DNA of 64,000 bases from NCBI GenBank assembly GCA_964016885.1, contig OZ024742.1:195858001-195922000 (forward strand), in the 5' to 3' direction. Source of the DNA: Eledone cirrhosa (lineage: Eukaryota). Below the pieces are notes generated by a model, which saw only the letters and a program-made list of their open reading frames with translations, ran no database searches and was not told the origin of the DNA. Positions 12,851-63,216 of this stretch are shown piece by piece (the stretch's first letter is position 1; each line of letters begins with the position of its first letter). Both the position numbers and the translations under genes were made by a program.

Positions 12851-12891
12851 TACTATATTACTAACAGCACCATGACTACTATCACTTATGC

Positions 12892-15456: not shown

Positions 15457-15534
<78 letters not shown>

Positions 15535-15794
15535 TTTCTTTATTAACCACAAGGGTTTACATAAAGTAGACATTAAGGACAGTGCAGGACAATGCAGGAC
15601 GGTACAAATGGGCATTTCTGCGTGTAAAAAAACAAAAACAGAGGATGTAACAAAAATAACAATGAAAATAACAATGAAAAATTCCCCAATAGGGGGGAGA
15701 CTTCGGAGGGACATTTGTGGAGAAAGCCCAGTAAAAAGCCACAATGACCCTGACCACCAAGGCAAGTGCCCTCTCCCAGTTTTCCACCTTTAGT

Positions 15795-18700
15795 TTACAG
15801 ATATATACTCAGAGTCGGCCCATTCACTCGGGCCATTCTTGCTTCTCTCACCCATCTTTCAACAAAATGCTGGAAAGAGAGCACTTCCTTCTCTACTCTG
15901 ATTTTCCTTTTCAAATGAAATTTGAAAAAGTCAATCAGAGCATCACCGAAGAGGTAAGTGCTCGTCTTCAGCCCTTTCAAACGTGTCCACCATACTATCT
16001 CTTTCGCCATGGCCACCAGACAGATAAAAACTGCCTGCCCTTCCCGGCTAAAGGAGGAGGGCGGGGCAATCCTCACGATAGACTCAGATGATAGCTGGAT
16101 CCGTCCTAAACGCGACAGCAGGTGTTCGACATAAACCCACAAGTCAGCAATTTTCGGACACTGGACGAGTGCGTGCAGGACGGTTTCGTCGCCCTGCGCG
16201 CATCTCGGACATGCCCGGCTGACGGCACCTCCATGCCTGTAGAGTTTATCCCGAACTGGCAAGGCTCCTCGGTAGCACTGCCAGGCCAGAGATTTCTGGA
16301 AGTTGTCCATAGGCCCTGGCCCGAAAGTTCTTCCGAAGAGATTGGCTAGTTGATTTTCGTCGACGCCTAGAGTTTCCCCAAGTACGTCGTCGCTCTTCCC
16401 CTCCACTAATCCTCTATAGAACGCCGAGGTGGAGTTTCCACCGATCACATTGCCCGATTGGTCGAGGGCTGTGAGCGCCTGAAGACATTCCAGTCTCCAG
16501 GCGCTCCCTCTCGGTCTTCGCTTGACCCAGGACTGCAGCTCCGTCAAGGAAACGAGCTGGGGAAAAACGCGTCTAGCAAACGGCGACCACACCTGATCAC
16601 CGTCGAGGAAGAGGTGGAGATGTCGTAGCCTGAGCGCGTGCCTGCGCATCATCAGCCACGGCATGCCCAGCCCTCCACGTAGCGGGTGTTGACAACAGAT
16701 GGACCGCCTGACCATCGGAGCACGTCCCTTCCACAAAAAGCGAAAGAGCAAACGCTCCAGCGCAGTCAGGCGAGGCTTAGGACAAGGTACGACGGTTAGG
16801 CGGTAGCAGATGACAGACGCGATGTACGCGTTAGCCACCTCCGCTCGACCTTTCAGGGATAGCTTCCTCTCCGCCCATTTCTGGGTGAGAGAAGCCACCC
16901 TGCTCGTCACCTCGTCCCAGTTTTTGTCCGTCTGGAGGTCCGGACCGAACCAGACCCCTAGCAATTTAACCGGTCCGTCCGTCCAGCGCCCGACGACGCT
17001 GTTGGACGGCATGGACCTGCCTCTCCAGGTGCCGAGCTGCAGGCCCACTGACTTTTCCTGGTTGATCATTGCTCCTGTCACCGCTTCGTATTCTCTTAGT
17101 GTAGTGCCGATCGCCTCGATGTGTTTGGCGTTCGACACCACTACGGTGACATCGTCCGCATATGCTGACACGGATCTTCCGCATCCTAGTTCGCGCGGGA
17201 CTCCCCTCAACGTCTCCAGTTTGTGCAGTAATGGCTCGAGAGTCAATACGTACAAGAGGGACGAGAGGGGACATCCTTGGCGGACCGAGCGCATGATGTT
17301 GAACGGTTCCGACAGGTGACCGTTCACTCTCACCACAGAGCAGATGTCGCTGTGCATGGCAGCGATCCAGCCTCTGAAGACGGGCCCAAAGCCAGCCGCC
17401 CTCAGGACTGCCGCTAGGTAACGATGGTCGACCCTATCGAAAGCTTTCGACTGATCTAAATTGATCAAGGACCCACCCGTGCCAGGTTCCCTAGCTACCC
17501 TCTCTACGATGTATCGCATGAGGTGGAGGTTGTCGTGGATGGATCTGTCGGGAATGGCGCATGTCTGCGCCTCTCCCACCAGACCACCAACGACAAGCGC
17601 CAACCTCTTTGCTAGCACCTTGGCCAAAATCTTAAACTCTGTGTTTAGCAGAGTTATGGGCCGGAAATTGTCTATGTTATCCCCCTTGTTCGGATCCTTT
17701 CTCAGCAGTGCCACCGCTCCTCGGCTCACAGAACTGGGAATTCTCCCGTTCTGTTGCCAGTTGCAGTAGACGTCCGCCAAGAGGCCTCCGAACAAGTCTG
17801 GCATCTGTACGTAAAGTTCATAGGGCAGACCATCCAAACCAGGCGATTTACCCCTTGTGCAGCCAGTCATTGCCTCCCTTACTTCAGCGGCTGTTATCGG
17901 CTTTTCGCAACACTTCGCCTCAGTGGCCGAGAGCCGCGGCAGTCCGTCGAGGTAGACACTAAAGTCCATCCCTCTACCCGGCCCCCCGCTGCCCCCGAAC
18001 AGCTGAGCGAAGTGTCGCTGAAAAGCTTCACACATTTGCCCGGGATCGAGTAGCATGCGCCCGTCGTGGTCCACCAAAGACCGGATCGTGGCTTTGTTGC
18101 CACGACGCGCCTCCGCCACTCGGGCCCATTGAACGGCTTTCGTCCCCTCGTGTCTGAGAGCACGCACCCTAGCTCTGACAACGCAGCCTTCGTGCTTTGC
18201 ATTGAAGAATTGGTCAAGGGCCAATTTCGCCGCAAGCACGTCGGTCGCAATGCCTTTGCTAAGCGCCTCGTCTAATTTTCTAACTAGTTCTCCCTCTGCT
18301 CTATTTTTCTCTATTGCTAAAGCCTTACTAAACCTAATCGATTCTATTCTAATCGCTCTTTTCAGAGCAAACCACCACTTGTTGTTGACGATGGCCCCCG
18401 TCAACGCCCGCTTAACTAGTTCGCTAATCCGGTCTCTGTAGGCCTTGCGCGCTGGTAAGGACGCGTTTAGCTTCCAGTAGCCGGGTCCTCGTCTATGAAG
18501 CCTATCTAAGTCAAGCACACAGATCACGAATTTGTGGTCCGTGTAGCTGACTATCTTGAATTGTGGACAGCCTATGCTAGACCTATCTATTTCCCTACAA
18601 AATACTCTATCTAGATATGATCTGGATGACCCTATGCGGTTTGTCCAAGTCCACATTGGCACATTCGGGAAATCCAATCGGTACCTGTCAGACAGTTCAA

Positions 18701-19214
18701 AACGCCTGAGCAGGTTGGTGAGGCTCTTGCACCCTCCACCCCTATCCGCTAATCCCACACAGTCCCAGCGTGCATCTAAGATCCCGTTCCAGTCGCCCAC
18801 TAACACTAAAGAGCGCGACGTTCCAAGAAAGGTCTCCAGACGCCGGAAGAAATCAGGCCGCCCTGCTCCTGTCGGGGCATAGACGGCCACTAGCCTGAAA
18901 GCTTGCCCGTCTCCGCTGGTCACGTCCAGCACCACCAGCTTACCCTCTGGGTCCAGGAAGATGGCCCGTATGGCGAGATCCAAACCTCTCCGAAAAAGCA
19001 CAGCAACTCCTCCACCCGATCCAGGACGGCTGGGAGATGCGTACACATCGTAGCCGCCGAAGATCGGTGCGAAGGCCCGTGCTTCGGAGATTCTGGTCTC
19101 GCTGATGGCCACTACATCTATGTTTAGTGACCTGAGGTCGTTGAGCAGGTGACCCTGCTTCCATGACGACCCCAAGCCACGCGCATTTATGCTGCCTATT
19201 CTGAGTGAGGTCAT
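15795..19214 (-). CDS. Tx1-like ORF2 (APE endonuclease, reverse transcriptase, C-terminal zinc knuckle), 1139 aa, uninterrupted
   Basis: SINARGL, AISETR, GDWN, YLDR, YTDH; KSPGLDG, FRPITLLN, LDQSKAFD, VRQGCPLS, AYADD; CPRC...ETVLHALVQC. Confidence 0.95.
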   Translation of the reverse strand: MTSLRIGSINARGLGSSWKQGHLLNDLRSLNIDVVAISETRISEARAFAPIFGGYDVYASPSRPGSGGGVAVLFRRGLDLAIRAIFLDPEGKLVVLDVTSGDGQAFRLVAVYAPTGAGRPDFFRRLETFLGTSRSLVLVGDWNGILDARWDCVGLADRGGGCKSLTNLLRRFELSDRYRLDFPNVPMWTWTNRIGSSRSYLDRVFCREIDRSSIGCPQFKIVSYTDHKFVICVLDLDRLHRRGPGYWKLNASLPARKAYRDRISELVKRALTGAIVNNKWWFALKRAIRIESIRFSKALAIEKNRAEGELVRKLDEALSKGIATDVLAAKLALDQFFNAKHEGCVVRARVRALRHEGTKAVQWARVAEARRGNKATIRSLVDHDGRMLLDPGQMCEAFQRHFAQLFGGSGGPGRGMDFSVYLDGLPRLSATEAKCCEKPITAAEVREAMTGCTRGKSPGLDGLPYELYVQMPDLFGGLLADVYCNWQQNGRIPSSVSRGAVALLRKDPNKGDNIDNFRPITLLNTEFKILAKVLAKRLALVVGGLVGEAQTCAIPDRSIHDNLHLMRYIVERVAREPGTGGSLINLDQSKAFDRVDHRYLAAVLRAAGFGPVFRGWIAAMHSDICSVVRVNGHLSEPFNIMRSVRQGCPLSSLLYVLTLEPLLHKLETLRGVPRELGCGRSVSAYADDVTVVVSNAKHIEAIGTTLREYEAVTGAMINQEKSVGLQLGTWRGRSMPSNSVVGRWTDGPVKLLGVWFGPDLQTDKNWDEVTSRVASLTQKWAERKLSLKGRAEVANAYIASVICYRLTVVPCPKPRLTALERLLFRFLWKGRAPMVRRSICCQHPLRGGLGMPWLMMRRHALRLRHLHLFLDGDQVWSPFARRVFPQLVSLTELQSWVKRRPRGSAWRLECLQALTALDQSGNVIGGNSTSAFYRGLVEGKSDDVLGETLGVDENQLANLFGRTFGPGPMDNFQKSLAWQCYRGALPVRDKLYRHGGAVSRACPRCAQGDETVLHALVQCPKIADLWVYVEHLLSRLGRIQLSSESIVRIAPPSSFSREGQAVFICLVAMAKEIVWWTRLKGLKTSTYLFGDALIDFFKFHLKRKIRVEKEVLSFQHFVERWVREARMARVNGPTLSIYL

Positions 19215-19249
19215 GTTTAAAATAGAGTGGAAAAGATGGGAAAGACCAC

Positions 19250-20857
19250 TTACCGTATTTTTGGTAGAGGAGGGATGGTTTTTACATCCCTTTTCACTTG
19301 ATCGTCTGGTGAAGGGACCGTTGAATCGTCCCTTCGGCTGGTCGTCGGCTCTTCTAAGAGAATGTCTGAATATACTCTTCGATTAATGGTTCCTCCTAGG
19401 TCCCTGAAATCACCAACTGCGTTGGGGAATTTCGTTTTAATGTTTGTGTATTGTTTCTGTGCTATTTTTAGCAGTCTTATGTTAGTTGGCGTTTTGATTG
19501 GTGCTGGTATTATGTAGTCCTGTTGTGAAATGTCTGTGTGTTCAATTATGTAAGTCATTAGTTTCTTGTTGTGTGTGTTTATTGCCGTGCATTTGTTTTT
19601 CTGGGGGTGGGGTGTGGTTCTGCTATTTTCTTGTCGTTGTTGCTGGGTGTGTGTGTTTTGTTGTTGTGTTTGCGATGTTGGTGCTTGTGGTGGTGGTGTT
19701 GAAGGTGTTGTTGGCGGTGGGGTTGTCGCCGGTGGTGATGGTGGTGCTGGTGTGGGTGGTGATGGTGTTGGTGGTGTTGCTGCTGTGGGTCTCTTTGCAG
19801 TAGACTTTACCCTTTTCTCATTTCTTTCCTCCCTTTTCAAAGGCGACGATGCGCTGCTTCTGCGTTTGTGCCTTCTTGAGACCTTTTGCCATCCCTCTCC
19901 CACCTCACACTCCATGTCTGATTCTGTAAGGTCGGGGAGGGGTACCAGCTCCACTCTTTCACTTGTTGTTGTTGGTGATGTTTGCACTGGAGTCTCTGTT
20001 GCAGCTGCATTTGGTATTGCTGTTGTTGTTGTTAATATTTCCACTGCTGCTGCTGTCTTTGATTTCCGTGGAGTGGGTATGGGTGCCACGGACCTATCGT
20101 TCCTGGTTGCCGCTTGTCCTGTTGCTGGTAGCCGTGGAACCGGATTCGGGAGGAGGGGGGTTTTCTCCTTTCTCAGGGTCTTCTCGTTGCAGAAGGCCCT
20201 GAGGTGAGTCTTCGATCCACAGCGAAAGCATTTCGGGCGTTTGCCCTCAACACTTATGGGCAGTTGAGTGCCGTTATCGAAGTCTATCACATCCGGGATA
20301 GCTTCGATGCACTCCTGGTTGGTTTGTATTAGCATCTCAATGGAGGAGCCGACCCAATCTTCTCTTACTTTTTTCTGTACTTGCAGTACAGTTGTTTTGT
20401 CCTCGATTCCGACGAGGACAGACGCGGCCAGCCAAGAAGGGGTCATTCCGGGGGGGACGTGGGTCAGTTTGACCCTCACAATTTTTTGCCCGCAGTAGGA
20501 GGGCACCAACACCATTTCCTCGCTCCTTAGGGTCACTACTGATTGGGCCTTTGCCTCCTGGGGTGTGGCAAAAAGTACGTCTACGGTGGCGTATTTTTTG
20601 CCTCGGGTGATGTGCGTTTTCCTCTGCCACACAGACCCCAAGGCTTTTTGTATTTGGGCCTCTGTGGCTCTTTCCACCCTACGGGATTTTGTACTTACTG
20701 TACGGTACGTGACCGTACAGTGCTCTTGGGTTTCGAAAAAATTTTTCGCTGCCTTGCAGATTGCTCGGTGTCCGTTCTTTGTCACCATCTTCTTCGCTTC
20801 CTCTAATTCCTCATTTGTTATGAGGATTGTTTCCAGGTTTTTCGCAATACCTGCAAA
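19250..20857 (-). CDS. Tx1-like ORF1 (gag-like, CCHC knuckle, Pro/Thr-rich tail), N-terminus missing
   Basis: CFRCGSKTHLRAFC knuckle; frame stays open upstream of the ATG at 20788 (FAGIAKNLETILITNEELEEAKKM) and aligns with SFAIVAKQFEAFTVTQEDLENAKQM at ~46610-46683. Confidence 0.85.
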   Translation of the reverse strand, partial: FAGIAKNLETILITNEELEEAKKMVTKNGHRAICKAAKNFFETQEHCTVTYRTVSTKSRRVERATEAQIQKALGSVWQRKTHITRGKKYATVDVLFATPQEAKAQSVVTLRSEEMVLVPSYCGQKIVRVKLTHVPPGMTPSWLAASVLVGIEDKTTVLQVQKKVREDWVGSSIEMLIQTNQECIEAIPDVIDFDNGTQLPISVEGKRPKCFRCGSKTHLRAFCNEKTLRKEKTPLLPNPVPRLPATGQAATRNDRSVAPIPTPRKSKTAAAVEILTTTTAIPNAAATETPVQTSPTTTSERVELVPLPDLTESDMECEVGEGWQKVSRRHKRRSSASSPLKREERNEKRVKSTAKRPTAATPPTPSPPTPAPPSPPATTPPPTTPSTPPPQAPTSQTQQQNTHTQQQRQENSRTTPHPQKNKCTAINTHNKKLMTYIIEHTDISQQDYIIPAPIKTPTNIRLLKIAQKQYTNIKTKFPNAVGDFRDLGGTINRRVYSDILLEEPTTSRRDDSTVPSPDDQVKRDVKTIPPLPKIR

Positions 20858-20858
20858 T

Positions 20859-21575
20859 GCAGGAGCAGGCCCTCAAAACGAAGTGGTTGAAGCACCATAT
20901 TTACAAGGAGGAGGCTAGCCCACTGTGCAGGATCTGTGGAGAGAGAGAGGAGACTGTGGCTCACATTGTGTCCGAGTGTAAACACCTAGCCCAGACCCAC
21001 TATAAGGGCTGGAGACACGATGTGATGGGCAGGGTGATCCACTGGCACCTGTGCAAAGTAAACAATTTACCACATTCTGAGAAATGGTATGAGCATAGGC
21101 CAGAGGCGGTGATGGAGAACGATCAGGTGAAGGTGCTGTGGGATTTTAGGATACAGACGGACAAAAAACTGGAACACAATAGACCTGACCTGGTGGTTGT
21201 GGACAAAGAAAAAAGATCGTGTCTGATTGTGGATGTGGCCTGCCCGTTCGACACGAGAGTGCAAGAGAAGGAGAGGGAGAAAATTAACCGATACCAGGAC
21301 CTAAAGTGGGAGGTGAAGAGGATTTGGAACTGCCATGAAGTCAAAGTGATCCCGATTGTCATAGGCGCACTGGGGACTATCTCCAAAAGTTTCCAGGGAT
21401 GGTTAAAGAAAATCGGCCCCTTCACGCTTTTTGGAACGCTTCAAAAGGCATGCTTGCTTGGAACAGCAAGAACCCTCCGATACGTCCTGAATATCTGAGG
21501 CTGCAGGTAGTGGCTTGATATTCATTCCAACGGACTTTCCAGTTAACCAACATCAATGACTGAGATTCAAGGAAT
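20859..21575 (+). mobile_element. Dong/R4-like LINE family 1, 3' fragment
   Basis: CRICG...[22 protein letters not shown] (CCHC plus RLE); near-identical to 43099-43815; (TAA)n tail. Confidence 0.92.
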
Positions 21576-21632: not shown

Positions 21633-23487
21633 CAAAATCACTGGAAGCTGGAGAAGTTAATATTAATTGTGGAATTTTTCAGGGTGACTCTTTATCACCG
21701 CTTTTATTCTGCATCGCACTTATACCATTAAGTAAAATGCTCAATGAAACAAAACATGGATATAAAGTCTATGACAAAACCATTAATCACCTGTTCTACA
21801 TGGATGACCTGAAACTATTTGCAAAAAATGATGAACAATTGCAAGGGCTATTATCCACGGAGAAGCAGTTCAGTGATGACATTAAAATGGAGTTTGGACT
21901 GGATAAATGCGCCAAAGCAACGTTCACCAGAGGAAAGCTGCTGAAGAGTTCAGACATTAATCTTGATCGGGGGAACGTGATAAGAGAACTTGATCAAGAA
22001 AAAACTTACAAATATCTAGGTGTTTGTGAAGGAGACGGAATCAAGCACTCGACAATGAGGGAAAGGATAAGGAAGGAATGTTACCGCAGACAAAGAGCAA
22101 TCTTAAGAACGGAATTGAATGCAAGGAATAGGATCGATGCCATAAACACGCTTGCCATACCAGTAGTAACCTACAGTTACAATGTCATCAACTGGTCAAG
22201 CACAGAGATCCGTAGGCTCGATACAAAAATCCGAAAATTCTTAACCATGCACAGAATGCATCACCCTAAGGCAGACATAGATAGAATATATCTCCCTAGG
22301 AAAGAAGGAGGACGTGGCTTAATCCAGTTAGACATTGCGTTGAAAACTGCAACAATTGGATTATTCACATATCTAAGGGAATCACATGATTGGATGATCA
22401 AACTCGTTTTGAAACACGAAAGCACCGAAAGATCATATTCCATTACAAAAGATGCACAAAGATACAGTAATGGACTACAAATTTTAGAAGTCCCATTTAC
22501 TGCTGAAATGGAAAACACAGAAAAAGCAAAGCAGGTAAAAGTAACTGCAAAGAAAGAACTGCTACAGAAACTGGCTAAGAAATGGCAAGAAAAGCCTCTG
22601 TATGGAAAATACCCAGAGCGAGCTAACAATCCTGATGTTGACAAAACTTTAACCCATCAGTGGTTGGCATCCTCTGGACTGAAATCGGAGACTGAAGGAC
22701 TGATTATATCGGCACAAGATCAGTGTCTGCCAACAAAAAATTACCAAGCCAACATAATAAAAAATGGGTGCAGCCCATTATGCCGTGTATGCAAAAAACA
22801 ACCAGAGACCATTGACCATATAATTTCAATGTGCAGTCCTATAGCTCCAACCGAATACCTAAACAGGCATGACAGAGCTGCACAATACATACATTGGATA
22901 ATGTGTAAGCATTTTGACCTGCCCCATCAAAAGAATTGGTGGGAGTATCAACCACCTCCCATACTTGAAAAAGATCACATCTCAATCTTGTGGAACTTTA
23001 GCATCCAAACAGACCGAAAAATAGATGCAAATAGACCTGATATAATATTGAAGGACTTTCAAAGGAGGGTATGCCTGCTAATTGATATGTCTGTTCCAAT
23101 AGACAAGAATGTATCTATAAAAACATTTGAAAAATTGAGCAAGTATAAGGACCTGGAGATAGAAATTGGAAAAATGTGGAAATTGAGAACTAAAACAATA
23201 CCAGTGGTTGTAGGCGCTCTGGGAATGATACCTAAGGGGTCTAACGACTACTTATCGCAAATCCCAGGAAACCCGCGTATAGGAGAAATACAAAAGATAG
23301 TACTAATGGGAACTGCCCATATACTAAGGAAGATCCTGTCAATATAAGTACATCACAAGTCTAAACACTAAGGATGCATGTGTGAATATGTATGTTCTTT
23401 CTTGAACATGGCGGACCTTGTTGTCTCTTGAGGTCACTGGTTGTGACTTGGTGATAACTCGTATGAACATAAAGCAAGATAAATGCA

Positions 23488-24304: not shown

Positions 24305-25680
24305 ACTTCCTTGAGAGTAACAATATGCTGAACTCCAACCAGCATGGATTCCGTAATGGAAGGGATTGCCTGACGCAGCTACTGCATCACTTTGATGACA
24401 TTTTGAGAGCCTTGGGAGAGGGTTCCAACACTGATGTTATCTACCTTGATTTCAGCAAGGCCTTTGACAGGGTTGATCACAACATTCTACTGAGAAAGCT
24501 GTCCAATATTGGTGTAACTGGAAAGCTGCTGCAGTGGATCAAGAGCTTCCTGTCAAACAGAACCCAACATGTTGTAGTTGAAGGAGTCAAATCCAGCCCA
24601 GCCAAAGTCAGTAGTGGGGTCCCACAAGGCACCGTGTTGGGCCCACTTCTCTTCATCATCTATATTAATGACATCACTGACATCATCAAACACAGCAACA
24701 TTAAAATTTTCGCTGATGATTCCAAGCTCCAAAAGGTCATCAATGGCGTGGATGACCGGATAAGCCTTCAGTCAGACCAACTGGCTGTTACCCAATGGGC
24801 GGAAAAGAACAACATGTTACTGAACGAAGACAAATTCGAACTGATCCACTTTGGAAAAGAGGATGCTCTGAAACTCCCGTACTCCCTCCCCTCCGGTGAA
24901 ACTCTCGTGGCATCTAACAACATCAGAGACTTGGGAGTAACCGTGAACAGCAACATAAGCTGGGCCACGCATATAAGCAGCAAAGTTGACATGGCCCGCA
25001 GAATGTGTTCCTGGATCCTCAGAACCTTCCAGTCGAGAGATTCCCACACCATTATCCTTCTCTTCTCTACTTTTGCCCGACTACACCTTGAATACTGTTG
25101 TCCACTGTGGTCTCCCCACACGAAACAAAGTATCATGAAACTTGAAGCTCCTCAAAGGGCAATCACGAAAAAGATAGATGGCATGTCAGACCTTGACTAC
25201 TGGGGTCGACTAGAAAAGCTGAAACTTTACTCACTCCAACGTCGCCGTGAGCGTTATATTATCTGCATGATGTGGAAAATGTTCCATCATCACTGCCCAA
25301 ATCATGTTGGCATCGCCTTCAAAATACACCCAAGGCTTGGGCCCCGTGCTATCCGTCCCAAACAAAAATTTAAATCGCAACTCATAACAACAATACGGCA
25401 CAATTATTTCACCTCAATTGGCCCTGCTCTCTTCAAATTCACACCAGGACACGTCAAAACAGAAACTGACCACACAAAATTCAAGAAGTCTTTGGACAAA
25501 TTCCTCCAAGTAATCCCGGACAAACCACCCACACCCGGATATGTCTCCGCAAACAGTAATTCTCTTCTCGAATGGGCCATGGTGCCCAAATCCTGAATTG
25601 AAAGACTTCGCCAGGTGGTGCTATTAAGTTAGACATGGCCTGGGCCAATCTGGCCAAAACATTTCAAAGTTATTCAAAGT
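24305..25680 (+). mobile_element. CR1-group LINE, 5'-truncated RT (ORF 24325-25596)
   Basis: QHGFR, YLDFSKAFD, SGVPQGTVLGP, FADDSK, RDLGV, LEYC..WSP, SLQRRRER; short tandem 3' tail ttcaaagtta. Confidence 0.9.
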
Positions 25681-45921: not shown

Positions 45922-45968
<47 letters not shown>

Positions 45969-48900
45969 GCGACCTACGTAGTAAATCTTATCATCGTGAG
46001 CTCCGCAAAGGTTTGTTATTTCCGTTTGTTAAAAATTGCCATTTATGGAAAATTTTATTGTTAACTGTTTATAAGCACACATACATTGTTTTCCGAAAAG
46101 GACACCCAAACAGATTGGGGCCTTGTGCCCAAAATTTTAACTTTTATTATTATCCAAAAATTTCTTTGAAAAAAAATGGCTAATTCCCCTCTGCACGAAG
46201 CAGCTGAAAGCCTTCCTCACAAAATAACACCTCACACCGACACCACCATTGTAAATGTTACTACATTTGCCAACACAAAAAAAAAATATAAGCAGTAGCA
46301 ATATTTTAAATTTGTCTCAGGCAGACATTCATTTTCCGCCATTACCAATGACTGCAGGTGTTAAAGCCTCCACCACCACCACCACCACCGCGACAACCCC
46401 CCCCCCCCCCCACCACCACCACCGCGACAACAGAAACAAAAGAAGAAAAAATAAATTAACTCGTGATGTCGAAATGAAATCAAGCAAAATGGACTGTTCC
46501 GCACCAAAGACGAATGACGTCACCACCACCACAACTGAAACAAAAATTAAGATTAACACAAATAACGATAGCAACAACAACAACAATGACATTATAAAAC
46601 CGACCCTCAGTTTCGCCATCGTAGCAAAACAATTCGAAGCGTTCACGGTAACTCAAGAAGATTTAGAAAATGCCAAACAAATGGTAAAGAAAGATGGGTA
46701 CAGGGTCAGCCTCACCCCCCCACCCCCCCCCCCCACCTAATAAAATGGAGCATCGGCGCCTGTGCACCGTGTCGTATAGAGCAATAAATGTAAAATCGCG
46801 CCGAGTGGAACGGGCATCCGAGCCCCAAATCCAAAAAGCTTTGGGACATGTGTGAGCAAGAAAAACCCACATCAGACGTGGGCAAAAGTATGGAACCGTG
46901 GATGTGTTCTTTGAAACACCAGAGGAGGCTAGAGAACACTCCATGGCCCCATTAAAAAGTGACGACCTCACACTCGTCCCAAGCTATTGTGGCCAGAGAC
47001 TCGTAAAGATCAGGGTGACCCACGTTCCACCGGCCATCGAAATTCCCTGGCTAATAGCGGCTGTCCTCGCCGGCATCGAAGCCAACACGAAAATAATAGC
47101 AGTAGCAAAAGAAAAGCAGGAAAACTGGTCCGGATCTGGGATGGAGCTCCTGATCCAAGCGGACCAAAAAAGCATTGAGGAGATCCCAGAGGTAATAGAC
47201 CTCACTGACCGCAGCCACCTCACGGTAATTGTCGAGGGCAGAAGACCTAGGTGTGTCGTTTGTGGTGAAGGAACCCACCTAAGGGCTTTCTGCCCTCAGG
47301 CTAAAAGGTTGAGGCCACCTCTCCTACCCACCCCAGTGACACAACCATCAACACCACCAGTAGCAGAGATGGCAGCAACAACTGTAGCAGCAACAACAGA
47401 AGCAACTATAACAGCAACAACCCCAGCAACAGTAGCAAAACCAACACCACTACCACCACCAGCAAAACCAACACCACCACCACCCAACGCTTCAGAACTA
47501 GCACCAGCGCCTACACCATCCACCACACCACAACCAAAACTAACGGCTGTGGAGGATTTTCCACTCCCCGGCCTATCACAACTGGAGACAGATTGTGACG
47601 ACGAGGAGTGGGAAACGATATCCGGAAAAAAAAAAAGAAACCAAAAAAGAAAAAATTCTCTTCCTTCCCCCTCCAAAAACAAAATACAGAGGGAAACAAA
47701 TAAACTAAGAAACAAAAAAGTTAGGACAGATATGCCACCATCCACACCAGCATCACCAACCCCATCAACCCAAACACCAACACCATCACCATCATTAACT
47801 CCAACACCACCATCACCTACACCACAAAAGTCACCAAAATGCGAAACAGAAACAAACCCACAACAAGCGCAAACAAAACAACCAAAACGATACACACTAC
47901 ACAGCATTAAATTTGAACAACAAGCAATTATTACACTACATCCAACACAACACCAGCATCACAGAAAAAGACTACACAACACCCCAAAAATTAACACCAC
48001 CTCCACACATACAAATCACTCGCATCACACAGAAAACGTACACGACACTAAAACAAAAATTCCCCAAAGACATCGGAGACTTCCGACAAGCACTCTCCAG
48101 GAGGATTTATAAGGACATCCTTCCGGAGGACGCCACAGGCAGTGAAAAGGATGGAGAAACCATCCTTCCTCTACGACAAGTAAGGTAAGTGGTCTTTCCC
48201 ATCTTTTCCACTCCTTTTCAACATGACCTCACTCAGAATAGGCAGCATAAATGCGCGTGGCTTGGGGTCGTCATGGAAGCAGGGCCACCTGCTCAACGAC
48301 CTCAGGTCACTAAACATAGATGTAGTGGCCATCAGCGAGACCAGAATCTCCGAAGCACAGGCTTTCGCACCGATCTTCGGCGGCTACGATGTGTACGCAT
48401 CTCCCAGCCGTCCGGGATCGGGGGGAGGAGTTGCTGTGCTTTTTCGGAGAGGTTTGGATCTTGCCATACGGGGCATCTTCCTGAACCCAGAAGGTAATTT
48501 GGTGGTGCTGGACGTGACCAGCGGAGACGGGCAAGCTTTCAGGTTAGTGGCCGTCTATGCCCCGACAGGAGCAGGGCGGCCTGATTTCTTCCGGCGTCTG
48601 GAGACCTTTCTTGGAACGTCCCGCTCTTTAGTGTTAGTGGGCGACTGGAACGGGATCTTAGATGCACGCTGGGATTGTGTGGGATTAGTGGATAGGGAAG
48701 GAGGGTGCAAGAGTCTCACCAACCTGCTCAGACGTTTTGAACTGTCTGACAGGTACCGAATGGATTTCCCGAATGTACCAATGCGGACTTGGACAAATCG
48801 CATAGGGTCATCCAGATCATATCTAGATAGAGTATTTTGTAGGGAAATAGATAGGTCTAGCATAGGCTGTCCACAATTCAAGATAGTCAGCTACACGGAC

Positions 48901-51884
48901 CACAAATTCGTGATCTGTGTGCTTGACTTAGATAGGCTTCATAGACGAGGACCCGGCTACTGGAAGCTAAACGCGTCCTTACCAGCGCGCAAGGCCTACA
49001 GAGACCGGATTAGCGAACTAGTTAAGCGGGCGTTGACGGGGGCCATCGTCAACAACAAGTGGTGGTTTGCTCTGAAAAGAGCAATTAGAATAGAGTCCAT
49101 TAGGTTTAGTAAGACTTTAGCAATAGAGAAAAATAGAAATTAGTTAGAAAATTAGATGAGGCGCTTAGCAAAGGCATCGCGACCGACGTACTTGCGGCGA
49201 AATTGGCCCTTGACCAATTCTTCAATGCAAAGCACGAAGGCTGCGTTGTCAGAGCTAGGGTGCGTGCTCTCAGACACGAGGGGACGAAAGCCGTTCAATG
49301 GGCCCGAGTGGCGGAGGCGCGTCGTGGCAACAAAGCCACGATCCGGTCTTTGGTGGACCACGACGGGCGCATGCTACTCGATCCCGGGCAAATGTGTGAA
49401 GCTTTTCAGCGACACTTCGCTCAACTGTTCGGGGGCAGTGGCGGGCCGGATCGAGGGATGGACTTTAGTGTCTACCTCGACGGACTGCCGCGGCTTTCGG
49501 CCACTGAGGCGGAGTGTTGCGAAAAGCCGATAACAACCGCTGAAGTACGGGATGCAATGACTAGTTGCACAAGGGGTAAATCGCCTGGTTTGGATGGTCT
49601 GCCCTATGAACTTTACGTACAAATGCCAAACTTGTTCGGAGGCCTCTTGGCGGACGTCTACTGCAACTGGCAACAGAACGGGAGAATTCCCAGCTCTGTG
49701 AGCCGAGGAGCGGTGGCGCTGTTGAGAAAGGATCCGAACAAGGGGGATAACATAGATGATTTTAGGCCCATAACTCTGCTAAACACAGAGTTCAAGATTT
49801 TGGCCAAGGTGCTAGCAAAGAGGTTGGTGCTTGTCGTTGGTGGTCTGGTGGGAGAGGCACAGACATGCGCCATTCCCGACAGATCCATCCACGACAACCT
49901 CCACCTCATGCGATACATCGTAGAGAGGGTAGCTAGGGAACCTGGCACGGGTGGGTCTTTGATCAATTTAGATCAGTCGAAAGCCTTCGATAGGGTCGAC
50001 CATCGTTACCTAACGGCAGTCCTGAGGGCGGCTGGCTTTGGGCCCGTCTTCAGAGGCTGGATCGCTGCCATGCACAGCGACATCTGCTCTGTAGTGAGAG
50101 TGAACGGTCACCTTTCGGAACCGTTCAACATCATGCGCTCGGTCCGCCAAGGATATCCCCTCTCGTCCCTCTTGTACGTATTGACTCTCGAGCCATTACT
50201 GCACAAACTGGAGACGTTGAGGGGGGGTCCCGCGCGAACTAGGATGCGGAAGATCCGTGTCAGCATATGCCGACGATGTCACCGTAGTGGTGTCGAACGC
50301 CAAACACATCGAGGCGATCGGCACTACACTAAGAGAATACGAAGCGGTGACAGGAGCAATGATCAACCAGGAAAAGTCAGTGGGCCTGCAGCTCGGCACC
50401 TGGAGAGGCAGGTCCATGCCGTCCAACAGCGTCGTCGGGCGCTGGACGGACGGACCGGTTAAATTGCTAGGGGTCTGGTTCGGTCCAGACCTCCAGACGG
50501 ACAAAAACTGGGACGAGGTGACGAGCAGGGTGGCTTCTCTCACCCAGAAATGGGCCGAGAGGAAGCTATCCCTGAAAGGTCGAGCGGAGGTGGCGAATGC
50601 GTACATCGCATCCGTCATCTACTACCGCCTGACCGTCGTACCTTGTCCTAAGCCCTGCCTGACTGCGCTGGAGCGTTTGCTCTTTCACTTCTTGTGGAAG
50701 GGACGCGCTCCGATGGTCAGGCGGTCCATCTGCTGTCAACACCCGCTACGTGGAGGGCTGGGCATGCCGTGGCTGATGATGCGCAGACACGCGCTCAGGC
50801 TACGACATCTCCACCTCTTCCTCGACGGTGATCAGGTGTGGTCGCCGTTTGCAAGACACGTTTTTCCCCAGCTCGTCTCCTTGACGGAGCTGCAATCCTG
50901 GGTCAAGCGAAGACCGAGAGGGAGCGCTTGGAGACTGGAATGTCTTCAGGCGCTCACAGCCCTCGACCAATCGGGCAATGTGATCGGTGGAAACTCCACC
51001 TGGGCGTTCTATAGGGGATTAGTGGAGGGGAAGAGCGACGACGTACTTGGAGAAACTCTAGGCGTCGACGAAAATCAACTAGCCAATCTCTTCGGAAGGA
51101 CTTTCGGGCCGGGGCCTATGGACAACTTCCAGAAATCCCTGGCCTGGCAGTGCTACCGAGGAGCTTTGCCAGTTCGGGATAAACTCTACAGGCATGGAGG
51201 TGCTGTCAGCCGGGCATGTCCGAGATGCGCGCAGGGCGACGAAACCGTCCTGCACGCACTCGTCCAGTGTCCGAGCATTGCTGACTTGTGGGTTTATGTC
51301 GAACACCTGCTGTCACGTGTAGGACGGATCCAGCTATCAGCTGAGTCCATCGTGAGGATTGCCCCGCCCTCTTCCTTTAGCCTGGAAGGGCAGGCAGTTT
51401 TTATCTGTCTGGTGGCCATGGCGAAAGAGATAGTATGGTGGACACGTTTGAAAGGGCTGAAGACGAGCACTTACCTCTTCGGTGATGCCCTGATTAACTT
51501 TTTCAAATTTCATTTGAAAAGGAAAATCAGGGTAGAGAGGGAAGTGCTCTCTTCCCAGCATTTTGTTGAAAGATGGGTGAGAGAAGCAAGTATGGCCCGA
51601 ATGAATGGGCCTTCTCTGAGTATGTGTCTGTAAATTAAAGGTGGAAAACTGGGAGAGGGCACTTGCCCTGGTGGTCAGGGCCACTGTGGTCTTTTAATGG
51701 GCTTTCTCCACAAATGTCCCTTGGAAGTCCCCCCCCCCCCTATTGGGGAATTTTTCTTTGTTATTTTTTTTTATTTCAACCTCTGTTTTTTTACACGCAG
51801 AAATGTCCATTTGTACCGTCCTGTATTGTCCTGTACTGTCCTTAATGTCTACTTTATGTGAACCCTTGTGGTTAATAAAGAAAA

Positions 51885-51885
<1 letters not shown>
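45969..51885 (+). mobile_element. L1/Tx1-like LINE, family A copy 2, apparently full length; ORF1 (~46480-48188) and ORF2 (48223-51633) frameshifted
   Basis: CVVCGEGTHLRAFC knuckle; ORF2 near-identical to 15795-19214; (TTA)n at both ends. Confidence 0.95.
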
Positions 51886-51926
<41 letters not shown>

Positions 51927-57306: not shown

Positions 57307-57380
<74 letters not shown>

Positions 57381-57382
<2 letters not shown>

Positions 57383-60300
57383 TTCTTTATTTGCCACAAG
57401 GGCGCACAAGAAAAGGGGACAATACAAAGACATGCCGGGGATTTTACATACAGTCGTGTAAAAAATATAAAAACAAACAATTACAACAATCGAAATGCCC
57501 AATAGGGGGGGGGGGGGGCGCCACAAATGGGTTGTTTAATACCCCGTCGATAGAACAACCCTCAACTCCAGGAGCGTGTTGTGCAAGTGCTCCTTTCTTC
57601 TCTTTGCTCTCTTCTTCAACCTACAGGCTTATAAACAGAGAAGGCCCAATCACTCGGGCCATTTTCGCTTCATTCACCCATCTTTCAGTAAATTTACTGG
57701 GGTGCAGTGTCTCTCTCTCCACTCTGATTCTCCTTCTAAAGTGATACTTAAAGAAGGGAATCAATTGTTGTTCGGAGAGAAAGGCATCTGTCCTCAGTCC
57801 TCTCAATCTCGTCCACCATATAACTTCTTTCACCATAGCCACCTTACAGAGGAAAACCGCCTCTCTTTCGTTTTTGAAAAAGGCTGGTGGTTTGATCCTT
57901 ACTATGGACTCGGCAGTCAACTGCAGTTGTTCTGCATAGTTCCACAGGTCGGTTACGCCCGGGCAGTGTACAATTGCGTGCAGGAATGTTTCAATGTCCT
58001 GCGCGCATCTTGGACACGTCCTCTTGGAAGGATCCCTGCCGAGGCGTCCGTGCCTGTAGATCTTGTCACGAACTGGTAGAGCTCCTCAGTAGCACTGCCA
58101 AGCCAGGGACCTCTGAAAGTTGTCCATAGGTCCCGGGCGGAAAGTCCTACCAAACAGACTGGCGAGCTCATCGTCTTCGACGCCCAGAGTCTCTCCGAGC
58201 ACGTCGTCGCCCTTGTAACGTACAATCCCTCTATAGAATGTCGAAGTGGAGTCTCCACTGATTGCTGCGCCCGCTTGCCAGAGGACTGTGACCGCCTGAG
58301 CGCATTCAATGTGCCAGGCGCCCATCGTTTTCGGTCTTTTCTTGACCCAGGACTGCAGCTCCGTCAGCGAGACGAGCTGTGGGAAAGCCTGTCTCACAAA
58401 CGGTGCCCACACCGGTTGGGGGTCGGTGAGGAATACCTGGAGATGCCGCAGCCTCAGCGCATATTTGCGCATCATCAGCCACGGCATTCCCAGCCCTCCG
58501 TTGGAAGGGTGCTGACAGAAGACGGATCTCCTCACCAGTGGAACCTGCTTCTTCCACAAAAACTGGAAGAGCATGCGTTCCATCTTGGCGAGGTGTTCAC
58601 GGGGACAAGGCACGATAGTCAAGCGGTAGTAGATAACGGACGCTATGAAAGTGTTCGCCACCGCCGCTCGACCTTTCAAGGACAGTTTGCACTCTGCCCA
58701 CTTCTGGGTGAGCGCAAATACCTTGGCCGTGACCTCGTTCCAGTTTTTCTCCACCTGGAGGTCTGGATCGAATCAGACCCCGAGCAATTTCACCGGTCCG
58801 TCCGTCCACCGTCCAACGACGCTATCGGACGTCATCGGTTTGCCTCTTCACGTACCGAGTTGCAAACCGACAGACTTGTCCGGGTTTAGTTTTGCTCCCG
58901 TCAGCGTTTCGTATTCTTTCAGTAAGTTCCCGGTCACCCCGATTTCCGAGGTGCTCGACACCATTACCGTCACGTCATCGGCATAAGCCAACGCCGCTTT
59001 GCGCAGTCCCGGTTCTAGATGGATGCCCTGCAACAGCTCCAGTTTCCGAGTCAATACATACAGCTCTAGAGTCAATACATACAGAATGGAGGAGAGAGGG
59101 CACCCCTGTCGAATGTAACGCGTGATTGCGAACGGCTCCGATAGGTAGCCGTTCACCTTGACCCTCGAGCAGATGCTGGTGTGCATCGCTTCGATCCAGC
59201 CTCTGAAAACGGGACCGAAACCGGCCGCCTTGAGAACCGCTTCCAAGTATCGATGGTCGACCCTATCGAATGCCTTAGACTGATCAAAATTGATCAGAGC
59301 CCCACCGAAGCCGGGTTTACTACTCACCCTATCTATGATGTATCGCATGAGGTGGAGGTTGTCGTGTATGGACCTGGTCGGGATTGCACACGTTTGCACT
59401 TTCCCTACTAGGTTTCTCGACGACAAGCGCCAACCTCGTCGCTAACACCTTGGCCAAAATCTTTAACTCTGTGTTGAGCAGAGTTATGGGCCTGAAGTTG
59501 TTAATTTCGTCCCCCTTGTTCTCGTCTTTCCTTATCAGCGTTACTACGCCCTTGCCTGCAGAACTGGGAGTTCTCCCGTTCTGCTGCCAATTGCAGTAGA
59601 CGGCTTCGAGGACGCCAGAGAACAAGTCCGGCATGCCTATGTAAAACTCATAGGGTAGACCATCTAGACCTGGTGACTTGCGTTTCCCGCAGCGGCCCAG
59701 AGCGTCCCGTATCTCAGTGTCCGTGATCGGTTTTTCGCAGAACTCGGCGTCCGTGTTCGAGAGACGCGGCAGGCCGACGAGGTATGAACTAAAGTCCATT
59801 ACCCCGTTCGGCTCACCGTCGTTCTGCTCAAACAGTCACGCAAAGTGTTGCTGAAAGGCCGCGCACATTTGCTTGGGGTCAAGTAGCACGCGTCCGTTTT
59901 GGTCTTTCAAAAACCGAATCGTGGACTTGTTGCCACTTTTTGCCTCCGCCACTCGGGCCCAGCTGACAGCTTTCGCTCCTTCGTTTCCTAGAGCACGTGT
60001 TTTGCTTCTGACCACGCAGCCTTCGTGTTTCGCGTCGAAGAACTGGTCTAGTGCCGTTCTCGACGCTAACACTCTAGCTGCGTTGGCACTTCTAAGTTCC
60101 TCGTCTACCTTGGCTACTAGTTCTCTTTCTATTTTGTTTTTCTCTAACGCTAACTCTTTGCTAAAGTCTATCGATTCTACTCTAATTGCTTTCTTGAGAG
60201 AGTACCACCATCTATTGTTAATGATGGCTCCCGTTCACTGTTGCTTGACTAGTCTACTTATCCGTTCACTGTAAGCTTTACGTGCCGGCAACGACATGTT

Positions 60301-63216
60301 CAGCTTCCAGTATCCGGTTCCCTGTCTATGTATTCTATCACCGTTGACTAAGTAGACGACTAATTTGTGATCTGAGTAGGCAACCAGTGCATTCGTGGAC
60401 AGTTTAACATCTCTTTGTCCCTTTCTCTAATGAAGAACCTATCTAAATACGATCTACATGTCCCGCTGAGGTTTGCCCACGTCCACTGTGGTGCAGTCGG
60501 GAAATCCAGTCGATACGTATCGGCCAGTTGGAATTGGCCGATTAAAGTTTTGAGGCTGTTGCACCCCCCTCTACTTGGACATAGTCCCATCGTTTATCTA
60601 GAATACCATTCCAGTCCCCCACTAAAAGTAAGGAGCGAGATGTTCCCAGAAAAGACTCTAGACGCTTAAAGAAGTCTGATCGTGATTGCGATTGCCCGGT
60701 CGGGGCATAAACGGCCACCAGTCTGAAGGCTCCACCTCCAATACTGTTCACGTCTAGGACTACCAGTCTACCCTCCGAGTCCAAGTGTACTTGCTGTACT
60801 TCGACGTCCAGGTTCTTCCGAAACATGACAGCCCCCCCCCCCCCCCTCCACCTCCTGGCTGACAGAAAGATGCGTAGATCTCAAAGTCGTCGAAGATGGG
60901 GGTTAGTTGCTGCCTGTTGTGGATCCTGGACTTGGTGATGGCTATCACATCCATACCGTGTGACCTAAGGTCGTTTAAAAGTTGGCCCTGTTTCCAGGGC
61001 ATCCCTAGGCCACGCACATTCACGCTTCCAACTCGTAAACTAGCCATGTTGGTGGAGAAGATTTGGCGAAAAGGACGAAAAGGTGCACTTACCTTTTCGT
61101 TTCCTGGAGATCGAGTTGTTCCATCTCCATTTCAGTTCTGCTGGGGGTGTTTGGTGGGGTGGAGAAACATTTTAATGAGACGCGGTTAATAGGTTTTTGA
61201 CAGGGGTTGCCAACATCCTGCGAAAACTGTTTTTTCAATTTCTGGTAGGTTTCTATCGAAACCCTTATTAGTTTTAGGTGTGGAGACGATTCTGCTTTGA
61301 CAAAAGTTTTGCCCTCCGTCTCCACCTTGGGGTTTTGGGAGATGACCTCCATCAAACTCTTGTTGTTTGTGTTGATGTATGCATATTGTTGTTTGTGTTT
61401 TTGTTGTGTTGTTTTAGTTTGTTGTCGTCCGGGAGTTTTCTTTTTATGGTGGGTGCTTGTGTTTGGGGTGGTGTTGGTGTTGGTTTTGCTGGTAGGGGGA
61501 TGTTTGACTGTGGTGTTGTTTGTGTTGTTGTTTGTCTCTGTGGTTGTGTGTTGGTGTTGGTGATTGGAGTTTTGGGGGTTTTGTGGTGTTTCTTTTTTTT
61601 TTGTTTTTTAGATTTCCGAGGCTCTCCTTCTTCTTCACTTAAAGAAGGAGAAGCAACCTCATCTGTCGGTGAATAATCATCGTCAGGAGTGTGGGATAGG
61701 GGTATGTTGTGTGGTGGTGGTGTTTCGGTGTGTGTGTTTGTGGTAGTGTTTGGTGGAGTGGGATGGGGTGGGACTGTGTTCTTCAGGGGTGTTGTCTGTG
61801 TTTTTTCTGTTGTTGTTGGTTGAGTGGCTGTTTGTTTTGGTGTGTTTGCTCGTTTCGTCTGTTGTTGTACTTGTGGTGGTGGTTGTTTTGGTGTTGGTGT
61901 TGGTAATAGTGTTTTTTTAATGATGTTGTTGTGGTGTGTTTGTGAAGGACAGGAGGCATTTAGGTGTGCCGTGCTACCACAGCGAAAGCAATGAAGTTTT
62001 CGACCCTCCACCGTAATGTTTATTTTGTTGTTGTCGTCGATGACGTCTTTTTCGGGTATTTTGGAGATTCTCTCCGGCTTCATTTGAATCAGAATCTTCA
62101 AATCAGTACCCGCCTACCTTTGTCTAATAGACTTTCGTATCAAAAGAAGCATATCAACCTCTGTCTCTACGAAGCCAGCCAAGATCCACCAGATGTTGAT
62201 ATTTGGTGGTTTAATTTTTATTTTTATTTTTGTGTCCTTTTTCCCATGTACGTAGGGAAAAAGGTGAATGCTTTTGACACTATTGATGTCACAGAATGTT
62301 TCTGGGCGAGTGCCTCGCTTTTAAACAGTACGAAAACACTTCCGTACTGTTTTCCTCGTTGGAGAAAGTCAATATTTGCTAGAGTCTCCTTGAAGGTGGC
62401 TTCTATATCTCCTTGACTAACAAATATCGGCTTTCTCGTTTTGTTGGAGACAGTCCTAAAGGTCACTGTCCTGCGAACTGTCTCTTCTTTTATTTCGAGG
62501 GGTGAGTTAATTCTAAACCCACCATTGTCTTCGAAAGTTACAAATTTTCTCCCTTGCTGGAGCATATCTCTTGCATTGGAGATGTCAAGATTTATAAAAT
62601 CTTGGTTTTTGTTCACTGTTTCAGCGAAAGACATTTTTTTTTGTGTGGTGTTGCTGTTGTTGTTGTTGTTGTTGTTATCGTTGTTAGCCTCGGTGTTGGA
62701 AATCTCAATTTCTTGACGAGGTGACACTTTATGTGTAGATGTATCTAAGGAGTTGTTGGTGTTGTCTTTTTCATGTGTATGTATGTTAATAGGTTTAATT
62801 CCTGTGTTTTGCTGTGTGTTATTGTTATTTTTCTCCGCTTCGACGGTAGAAATTTTAAAATCTTCAAGTGGTAATATTTTTTTCTCTTTGTTGACAGTCG
62901 TATCTACGGCGACGTCCATAGTAGCAGAAGCAGATATAACGTTAATATCTGCCTCTCTACCTCTCTTCTCTCTGTGGACGTTCTCTAGCGTTCTTTCCGA
63001 GCTATTCATGTTTTATAGTTGCCAAAATTTGATATTTTAAAACAATTTTTTAATTAAATTTTCGCCCCTAAAGGGGCGAAAAATGGGATTACCACCCAGC
63101 TGACAATTCAGCTTGGGGGTTAATCTACAAAATGATATGTTTTTTCAAACAATTAGTTCAGTTTTTTGCATAGAAATTAACAAAAAAGCTTACCGGCGAT
63201 GTTCCATGCATCAGGC
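57381..63216 (-). mobile_element. L1/Tx1-like LINE family B, full length but multiply disabled (ORF1 63009-61089, ORF2 61047-57621)
   Basis: CFRCGSTAHLNASC knuckle; SVNVRGL, GDWN, FRPITLLN, DQSKAFD, AYADD; (TAGA)n at both ends (~57305-57380 and 63217-63295). Confidence 0.93.

Follow-up and report, generated by a model that had tools for sequence, protein, structure and literature searches.

A conserved 5' splice-site motif at the end of ORF1 in L1/Tx1-like elements of Eledone cirrhosa, with a possible role of splicing in ORF1 expression and exchange

In the Arabidopsis Ty1/Copia element EVD, the gag-like ORF ends in a conserved 5' splice site; its use yields a short structural-protein RNA, and genomic RNA that stays unspliced is protected by U1 (PMC5580714, available portion of the text). 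The Ogre LTR retrotransposon has splice signals in the spacer between two ORFs, which averages 274 bp, and its splicing has been demonstrated (PMC6317226, available portion). In human L1, retrotransposed spliced RNAs known as SpIREs amount to ~2% of full-length L1 and preserve exact genomic splice junctions; the accessible text describes them as "dead on arrival" deletions that start from a 5'UTR donor and stay inside a single element (PMC5860796). HAL1 elements, ORF1-only derivatives of L1, have the structure expected of a retrotransposed ORF1-only splice product, as far as the accessible text describes them (PMC5753468). The L1-Tx1 LINEs of Octopus vulgaris, and sequence-specific Tx1 elements, share with the elements studied here an endonuclease-RT-zf ORF2, a CCHC ORF1 and many young families; the accessible text of the Octopus paper contains no occurrence of "splic" or "ORF1" (PMC13282606). 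A search of titles and abstract openings, mostly outside the subscription literature, found no description of an ORF1-end donor or of splice-born ORF1 swaps.

We analysed a 64,000-nt stretch of Eledone cirrhosa DNA (the window) with three long elements, A1, A2 and B1 (Table 1). As in EVD, a conserved donor stands at the end of the gag-like ORF, here ORF1; EVD, however, is an LTR element that encodes gag and pol in a single ORF and polyadenylates early, after a short intron (PMC5580714, available portion), whereas these are bicistronic non-LTR elements with a predicted intron that would span ORF2. ORF2 of A1 matches PF03372, PF00078 and PF13966, that is, an N-terminal APE endonuclease, RT and a C-terminal zinc-binding domain, the set found in the L1/Tx1 group; its best PDB match is human LINE-1 ORF2p (E 2.7e-52), with R2 at 1e-21. 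The layout is also that of the L1/Tx1 group, with a separate upstream CCHC-bearing ORF1, no LTRs, and a poly(A) signal plus simple-repeat tail; the CCHC knuckle is present in eight of the nine subfamilies whose open ORF1 stretch is at least 399 aa. ORF2 has no protease or integrase, which does not fit membership of Ty1/Copia. The elements are provisionally labelled Tx1 rather than L1 clade proper, following the first-pass annotation; protein searches yielded no named Tx1 reference sequence. They have microsatellite tails and targets, and mixed tandem arrays of the subfamilies are present in the genome. Metagenome scans gave no confirmed relative; the second scan had two matches, and the one examined was unrelated.

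The three elements had been annotated as long copies, and their features at the ORF1/ORF2 junction stand, with corrections as to how complete they are. ORF1 of A1, a type that reaches ~690 aa in full-length copies, is interrupted by another LINE at ~20859, A2 and B1 are frameshifted, and only A1 has an intact ORF2. A1 is 98-99% identical to the full-length copy L152, and at least 40 copies are identical to it across the junction.

Table 1. Elements in the window and their parts (window positions; a slash marks the putative splice point)
Feature	Positions	Strand	Remarks
Element A1	15515..20859	-	Copy truncated at its 5' end, from a chimeric subfamily that is young and abundant; AATAAA and (ATT)n tail
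A1 ORF1, 3' part	19250..20788	-	CCHC knuckle; no Pfam match
A1 chimeric junction	19296..19297	-	Boundary of H-type ORF1 and A2-type sequence; likely fossil splice
A1 5' splice-site motif ACG/GTAAGT	19248..19256	-	ORF1 stop inside motif; phase 2
A1 proposed 53-nt intron	19201..19253	-	Donor, pyrimidine-rich spacer, ORF2 ATG, Arg5 AG; local splicing unlikely
A1 ORF2	15795..19214	-	Intact, 1139 aa; endonuclease, RT, zf-RVT
A1 candidate distal acceptor, 3'UTR	15618..15640	-	T-rich tract and CAG; predicted only
Element A2	45935..51912	+	Near full length; ORFs frameshifted
A2 donor AAG/GTAAGT (48185), spacer, local AG (48236)	48182..48236	+	
A2 candidate distal acceptor, 3'UTR	51779..51800	+	Predicted only; poly(A) signal at 51874
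Element B1	57380..63012	-	Degraded, frameshifted; (CTAT)n tail; 5' limit approximate, taken as start of first ORF1 open frame
B1 donor AAG/GTAAGT (61092), spacer, local AG (61040)	61040..61095	-	
B1 ORF2 stop, acceptor-like CTG TAG/G	57621..57640	-	Common to 13/17 subfamilies; predicted only

The donors reported at 19253 (-), 48185 (+) and 61092 (-) were reproduced exactly. For comparison we sampled 17 subfamilies of L1/Tx1-like element genome-wide. The motif MAG/GTRAGT, a consensus 5' splice site in the spacer as in Ogre, is kept in all 17, each matching at 8-9 of 9 positions; this exceeds chance, the background being 23 sites scoring at least 8/9 among 87,923 other element positions. The rule that located the donor fixed positions -1 to +4, leaving -2, +5 and +6 free, and these free positions are conserved in 15/17, 16/17 and 17/17, respectively. 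Conservation spans columns -2 to +6 (14-17 of 17) and falls off at -3 and +7, a footprint of U1 pairing only, and the variants GTAAGT, GTGAGT, GTAGGT and GTAATT are all donor-compatible. The ORF1 stop codon varies among subfamilies (TAA, TGA or TAG), as does ORF1 phase at the donor (2 in ten subfamilies, 1 in six, 0 in one; 3-4 changes on the tree). At four-fold ORF2 sites, 3 of 22 are invariant, with ~50% identity between clades. We conclude that the ORF1-end motif is a conserved 5' splice-site sequence, kept independently of stop codon and frame; it is likely a working donor.

A second suggestion of the first-pass annotation, that ORF1 is spliced from this donor to acceptors elsewhere, gains support from this conservation and from chimeric families whose junctions fall exactly on the donor. 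A1 is itself such a chimera: H-type ORF1 continues up to exactly H's donor (window 19297), followed by A2-type sequence that begins just after a CAG in the A2 ORF1 tail, 42-44 nt before A2's own donor. A search for this chimera gave 2,374 pattern matches; 99 of the first 100 among the matches listed were of this type, and there are at least 2,300 copies. A further family, M (3 of the 17 matches in its search), runs from K-type ORF1 to the donor, then through a 76-nt K-type tail unit to the donor again, and then into I-type sequence starting 23 nt before I's donor, so that two donor junctions lie in series; 17 nt of homology just upstream of the junction went unused. Its ORF1 is one frame to I's stop in two of the three copies, bar single point-mutation stops. 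A2 and I each have only two YAGs in the last 150 nt, and one of the two is the partner site. The pyrimidine tracts of these cryptic acceptors are weak (9-10/20).

In all, three long-range junctions in A1 and M lie on donors; A1 alone was found without selecting for donor position. We propose that these junctions are likely retrotransposed splices between tandem copies, which would have swapped ORF1. They are candidate counterparts of SpIRE junctions, but they connect different subfamilies where ORF1 ends and gave rise to families that amplified; the A1 chimera has amplified and has intact ORFs. Two nucleotides, AG, are shared at the junctions, so template switching by RT could mimic splicing. 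There are also 5-nt slippage deletions at the donor (L255, L259, L276), which would provide a two-step rival route to A1; a search for an A1 intermediate with two donors yielded none, its two matches both being unspliced H/G-type copies. One long deletion at an A donor (L247) is not preceded by AG.

Candidate acceptors for this donor also occur near the end of ORF2. In 13 of 17 subfamilies ORF2 ends on TAG, with G as the usual next base; after splicing to this stop, the product in each subfamily's own phase would stop within two codons in 9 of the 13 (permutation p=0.036, post hoc and with kinship ignored) and would run for 28-79 aa in the remaining four. A1, A2 and F have a high-ranking 3'UTR AG in place of the TAG; for A1 the predicted product is ORF1 plus ~20 aa, stopping just before the poly(A) signal at 15544. 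There is no single homologous distal acceptor across subfamilies, and among ~260 AGs the distal acceptor reaches the top 8 in just four of them (D, D2, E and J), its rank being 14th-70th in B, H, I, I2, K, K2 and L. No retrocopy consisting of ORF1 only, the structure of HAL1, was found among 3,098 A, 30 I and 30 J copies. Their absence is what one would predict of an RNA that has no ORF2p in cis, but it lends no support. Most copy-search patterns miss products that start with GT, as TAG/GT splices in B, C, I, J, K and L would; copies were picked free of this bias only for the 30 I and 30 J, and the B, C/E, G/H and K searches have no totals. One loose pattern was discarded (174 matches against 384 in the control).

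Taken as a whole, our preferred reading is that the spliceosome would act at the ORF1-end donor and join it to a distant acceptor near the ORF2 end, dropping ORF2 and leaving an ORF1-only mRNA; the nearby AG is likely too close for use, and full-length RNA would retain the spacer. Read-through RNA of mixed tandem arrays may be spliced from the donor to a cryptic AG and then retrotransposed, which would swap ORF1 modules, and U1 on the unused donor may also shield full-length RNA from early polyadenylation. We hold this combined reading to be evenly balanced between right and wrong. A more specific version is offered tentatively, as something short of an even bet: two stop codons would bracket a splice switch, with the donor on the ORF1 stop and the acceptor on or near the ORF2 stop giving a subgenomic ORF1-only mRNA, and the same donor, spliced into the ORF1 tail of the next element in microsatellite-targeted arrays, would create new active families with swapped 5'UTR and ORF1 through splicing by the host instead of template switching by RT.

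A different use of the donor was proposed in the first-pass annotation, namely that a 52-53-nt intron is removed to give a gag-pol-like ORF1-ORF2 fusion. Its description of the segments is confirmed (53, 52 and 53 nt; pyrimidine content 70-77%; free of AG from donor +6 to the acceptor), as is a phase 2 to phase 2 splice with an open product across the junction in A1, A2 and B1. The fusion itself is not supported, and two outcomes named beforehand as counting against it were observed. Ogre elements, whose inter-ORF intron works in this way, are a precedent (PMC6317226, available portion), but here the spacer is 28-53 nt and frame is not conserved: of 17 subfamilies, 10 have their first AG in frame and seven have it out of frame (C, D2, E, F, G, H, K2), among them the young and intact family E. 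In C, D2, E and G an in-frame TAG does follow at 53-59 nt, behind the out-of-frame AG; in H, none is in frame before 137 nt. The local in-frame AG is the ORF2 Arg5 codon (a Ser codon in B), with AGR conservation no higher than in other Arg columns; because it is an ordinary coding codon, the first AG is in frame no more than by chance. At 28-61 nt to the first AG, the segment is below the length of every host intron sampled: the shortest were 89, 90 and 93 nt in a small sample of ~70 myosin introns, counted after removal of wrong-strand or overlapping-alignment rows (C11a 33-237 nt, C8 27 nt) and exon-skipping pairs. Cis-preference predicts intron-less genomic copies, as with SpIREs, yet none of 3,098 family-A copies lacks exactly this segment, nor does any in the B, C/E, G/H, I, J and K searches. 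The 53-nt skip is absent from the contigs, of unspecified kind, of sequencing runs X1-X4 within a narrow junction region, and a protein search, which gave only four matches, found no fused form among the relatives (626-1994 aa). Three candidates were rejected on inspection: the 1438-aa frame of L201 reflects an upstream deletion with the junction intact, and L271 and L274 carry point changes rather than splices. We regard the fusion, even if confined to the phase-2 subfamilies, as improbable.

The strict conservation of the donor alongside no conserved acceptor would also follow if the motif were kept solely as a landing site for U1 snRNP, serving to block early polyadenylation or to aid stability or export of full-length RNA, with productive splicing happening rarely and by accident, as witnessed by the chimeric families alone. 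Binding of U1 to the EVD donor does block premature termination (PMC5580714, available portion), and A[AT]TAAA hexamers occur upstream of the donor in the A-rich ORF1 of 16/17 representatives, with few in ORF2. These hexamers are at non-homologous sites, however, as expected from A-richness, and a conserved AATAAA site upstream of the donor was rejected for that reason; nor would U1 binding explain the TAG/G sites where ORF2 ends and the early in-phase stops that they give. We think this account rather unlikely. The motif might instead act in translation, as a stop context, as tandem stops or as a hairpin that lets ORF2 reinitiate, or it might be a relic of descent; its donor likeness would then be incidental and the chimeras due to template switching, for which the shared AG offers microhomology. 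The ORF2 ATG is preceded by a conserved CAAC context (16/17 in every column), the B donor is paired within a 10-bp hairpin predicted on copy L036, and hairpins over the donor outperform spacer shuffles in B, C and H; in the other 14 of 17 subfamilies they do no better (G marginal, 13/200), and a hairpin as a general feature was rejected. The motif persists with no ORF1 stop inside it (phase 0) or with the stop after it (phase 1), and +5 and +6 are kept beyond the stop; template switching fits poorly with family M, with its successive donor junctions and bypassed homology. This account appears improbable.

Two questions about the L1 group are the balance between ORF1p and ORF2p and the repeated gain of new 5' ends and ORF1s. 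UTR replacement has been noted in L1 (PMC5753468, available portion). The present result removes a tempting but unsupported reading as a spliced gag-pol fusion. The preferred reading, of a donor serving ORF1-only expression and ORF1 exchange, bears on both: conservation of the donor across three clades, at ~50% synonymous identity, points to splice-based control of a kind so far known from LTR elements, and the A1 and M junctions would give exact coordinates for the proposed swapping of ORF1 by splicing, in the case of the A1 chimera within one of this genome's most abundant young families.

The consensus splice donor MAG|GTRAGT lies at the end of ORF1 in all three long LINE elements of the window (A1, A2 and B1, the last from subfamily B), and the first-pass annotation had read it as the start of a candidate 52-53-nt intron that would fuse ORF1 to ORF2 in frame. 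The donor coordinates were reproduced in all three copies, as were the lengths (53, 52 and 53 nt), the pyrimidine spacer free of AG and a product that would read in frame. Tx1 is used here as a provisional name; the closest PDB match to ORF2 is human LINE-1 ORF2p. ORF2 has endonuclease, RT and zf-RVT domains, and the elements end in AATAAA followed by (ATT)n or (CTAT)n, the former found at and around the 3′ ends of subfamilies A, D, E and H and the latter in B, I, J and K. The C-terminal 70 aa of ORF1 form a conserved domain, common to all three clades of the family and lacking a Pfam match. The sole named close protein match is an Octopus sinensis 'tectonic-3-like' model with ~60 aa of the endonuclease (64% identity), reflecting either exonisation or mis-annotation. 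Elements often lie in arrays with a period of ~6 kb, and different subfamilies are stacked head to tail at 5.8-6.1 kb (arrays such as C2:110322082-110352767). One of the nuclease-like LINE fragments listed below sits where the ORF1 of A1 is cut.

Features of the window (positions in nt)
Feature	Position	Strand
Element A1; donor	15515-20859; 19253	-
Element A2; donor	45935-51912; 48185	+
Element B1; donor	57380-63012; 61092	-
ORF1 C-terminal domain (example)	19360-19590	-
A1, ORF2 frame open upstream	19214-19382	-
Simple-repeat ends	15500-15535, 51890-51918, 57330-57380	
Another LINE type, RT + C-terminal nuclease-like region (presumably R4/Dong-like)	616-1128, 20857-21498, 21737-23347	+
Same type	43174-45096	-
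Endonuclease-RT LINEs of other clades (presumably RTE-like and CR1-like)	2739-5720	-
Same group	24325-25596, 37842-41000	+
Tx1-like piece, 5′-truncated	10246-11282	-
Tx1-like piece, 5′-truncated	12891-13721	+

Searches covered the 3.0-Gb assembly, in which the codon pattern of the ORF2 start was matched 11,240 times, compared with 18 for the control. Junctions for the survey were chosen through ORF2 sequence, not through the junction itself, and sorted into three clades with 17 subfamilies in all, of which D2, I, I2, J, K, K2, K3 and L are represented by 1-4 copies only. Identity between clades at four-fold sites is about 40-60%, with 3 of 22 such sites invariant across the 14 subfamilies whose open frames are long. 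The donor scores at least 8 of 9 in 17/17 subfamilies, a level reached by 23 of 87,923 other element positions. Its conserved span runs from -2 to +6 and drops at -3 and +7; the locating rule imposed -1 to +4, and the free positions agree at -2 (15/17), +5 (16/17) and +6 (17/17). The stop within the motif varies (TAA, TGA or TAG). ORF1 phase at the donor, assigned from the longest open frame with an alignment of the C-terminal domain as a check, is 2 in A1, A2, B, F, I, I2, J, K, K3 and L, 1 in C, D2, E, G, H and K2, and 0 in D, requiring four changes on the tree; the phase-1 and phase-0 subfamilies have no ORF1 stop at that place, yet retain the motif. Of the 17, just B, C and H have a predicted hairpin that would mask the donor. 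The donor is very probably recognised by U1 or the spliceosome. A2 and D have a second near-consensus donor inside ORF2 (at +309 in copy L153 and +310 in L157), and D, E, I2, J and K2 have an AAG|GTGGGT site close to the ORF2 end.

The earlier expectation that donor and in-frame first AG would both be conserved was borne out for the donor and not for the AG. The first AG is in frame in 10/17 subfamilies, where it lies 30-61 nt from the donor and is frequently a weak AAG; in the remaining seven (C, D2, E, F, G, H and K2) the frame does not match. Subfamily E is young with intact ORFs; the 30 H copies read mostly carry an out-of-frame TTCAG|G of textbook form, their nearest in-frame AG being at 137 nt. 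The in-frame AG belongs to the Arg5 codon of ORF2 (AGR in 15/16), and six other Arg columns are equally conserved. The proposed intron is also short beside the host introns sampled: the shortest of about 70 introns, from 12 myosin stretches with spurious rows dropped, are 89, 90 and 93 nt. If ORF2p were made from spliced RNA, intron-less copies would be expected because of cis-preference, a parallel being the SpIREs, retrotransposed spliced RNAs amounting to about 2% of full-length human L1s (excerpts of PMC5860796). Family A has T at donor +2 in 3,069 copies and another base in 29; each of these 29 was inspected and proved unspliced. Nor was a spliced copy found among 9 C/E, 4 B, 5 I, 28 G/H/A1 and 17 K matches, in 30 copies each of B, I and J, or among 100 listed matches of the ORF2-start pattern, and the 53-nt skip is absent from contigs (of unspecified kind) of four sequencing runs. 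The fusion intron failed the first-pass annotation's own tests on frame and on intron-less copies. Ogre, an LTR retrotransposon, offers a precedent for inter-ORF fusion (excerpts of PMC6317226), but these LINEs fail two tests that define such an intron, a conserved acceptor that restores the frame and a length within the range of the host introns sampled; we think it quite unlikely that the element relies on fusion. A1 copies (L151, L152, L201) have an ORF2 frame that stays open through the spacer for 43-52 codons upstream, giving frames of 1195-1204 aa; in L201 a deletion joins part of ORF1 to the ORF2 frame (1438 aa).

The donor may instead serve distant acceptors. In 13/17 subfamilies the ORF2 stop is TAG, mostly followed by G, and splicing into it would excise ORF2 exactly; the own-phase product meets a stop within two codons in 9/13 (permutation p=0.036, post hoc and with kinship ignored). 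A1, A2 and F end ORF2 with TAA and offer instead a high-ranking acceptor candidate in the 3′UTR; its use in A1/A2 would extend the product by about 20 aa, to a stop close to the poly(A) signal. The distal acceptor is the weakest step of the proposal, because by our simple score such sites rank high in some subfamilies only. No ORF1-only retrocopies were found among 3,098 family A, 30 I and 30 J copies. We put at about even the chance that the donor is under selection for distal splicing that yields an ORF1-only RNA. Alternatively, the donor may bind U1 without productive splicing, which fits an A-rich ORF1 with scattered poly(A) hexamers. The bases following the ORF2 stop often form AG|GT (CTGTAG|GTAGGT in C), which we take to resemble recursive 'ratchet' splice sites. 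A strong acceptor precedes the ORF2 ATG, 26-48 nt from the donor, in K, K2, K3 (L350-L356), D (L155-L158), E (L070) and F (L278-L306), with a branch-like TTTAAC and TTTTCAG in K; it could serve an upstream 5′UTR donor, yielding ORF2-only RNA.

Chimeric junctions fall on the donor. By ORF1-tail alignment the ORF1 of A1 is H-type, ending exactly at the H donor (window 19297), and what follows is A2-type, starting right behind a CAG 42 nt ahead of the A2 donor. No other clear breakpoint emerged when 275 distinct junction regions were tiled. The pattern of this one is matched 2,374 times, and this chimera accounts for 99 of the first 100 matches in the list. The chimeric family M (3 copies), whose junctions came from a pattern anchored on the donor, has ~1.7 kb of K-type sequence up to the donor, a 76-nt K-type tail unit reaching the donor again, and I-type sequence from a CAG 23 nt before the I donor through the I ORF2. 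The unit is preceded by AG in the K copies read and by GG in K2 and K3. In both A2 and I, the partner site is one of just two YAGs within 150 nt. Mixed tandem arrays are present in the genome, and read-through RNA over them would allow multi-exon splicing and retrotransposition into chimeras, which we infer as the simplest reading. A rival is template switching at the 2-nt AG that the two sides share, and the second M junction skips a 17-nt homology just upstream. A1 could also have arisen in two steps by slippage deletions at the donor, but no intermediate was found. Chimeras by splicing would be similar to SpIREs, but these join two subfamilies and later amplified.

We found no description of the donor or of splice-born ORF1 swaps in the literature searched (mostly titles and abstracts), and 'splic' and 'ORF1' are absent from the main text of an Octopus vulgaris repeat paper (PMC13282606). 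In EVD, an Arabidopsis Ty1/Copia element, subgenomic-RNA splicing and U1 binding act together (excerpts of PMC5580714). The LINE donor would work like such a subgenomic RNA switch, in an element that is itself not copia.
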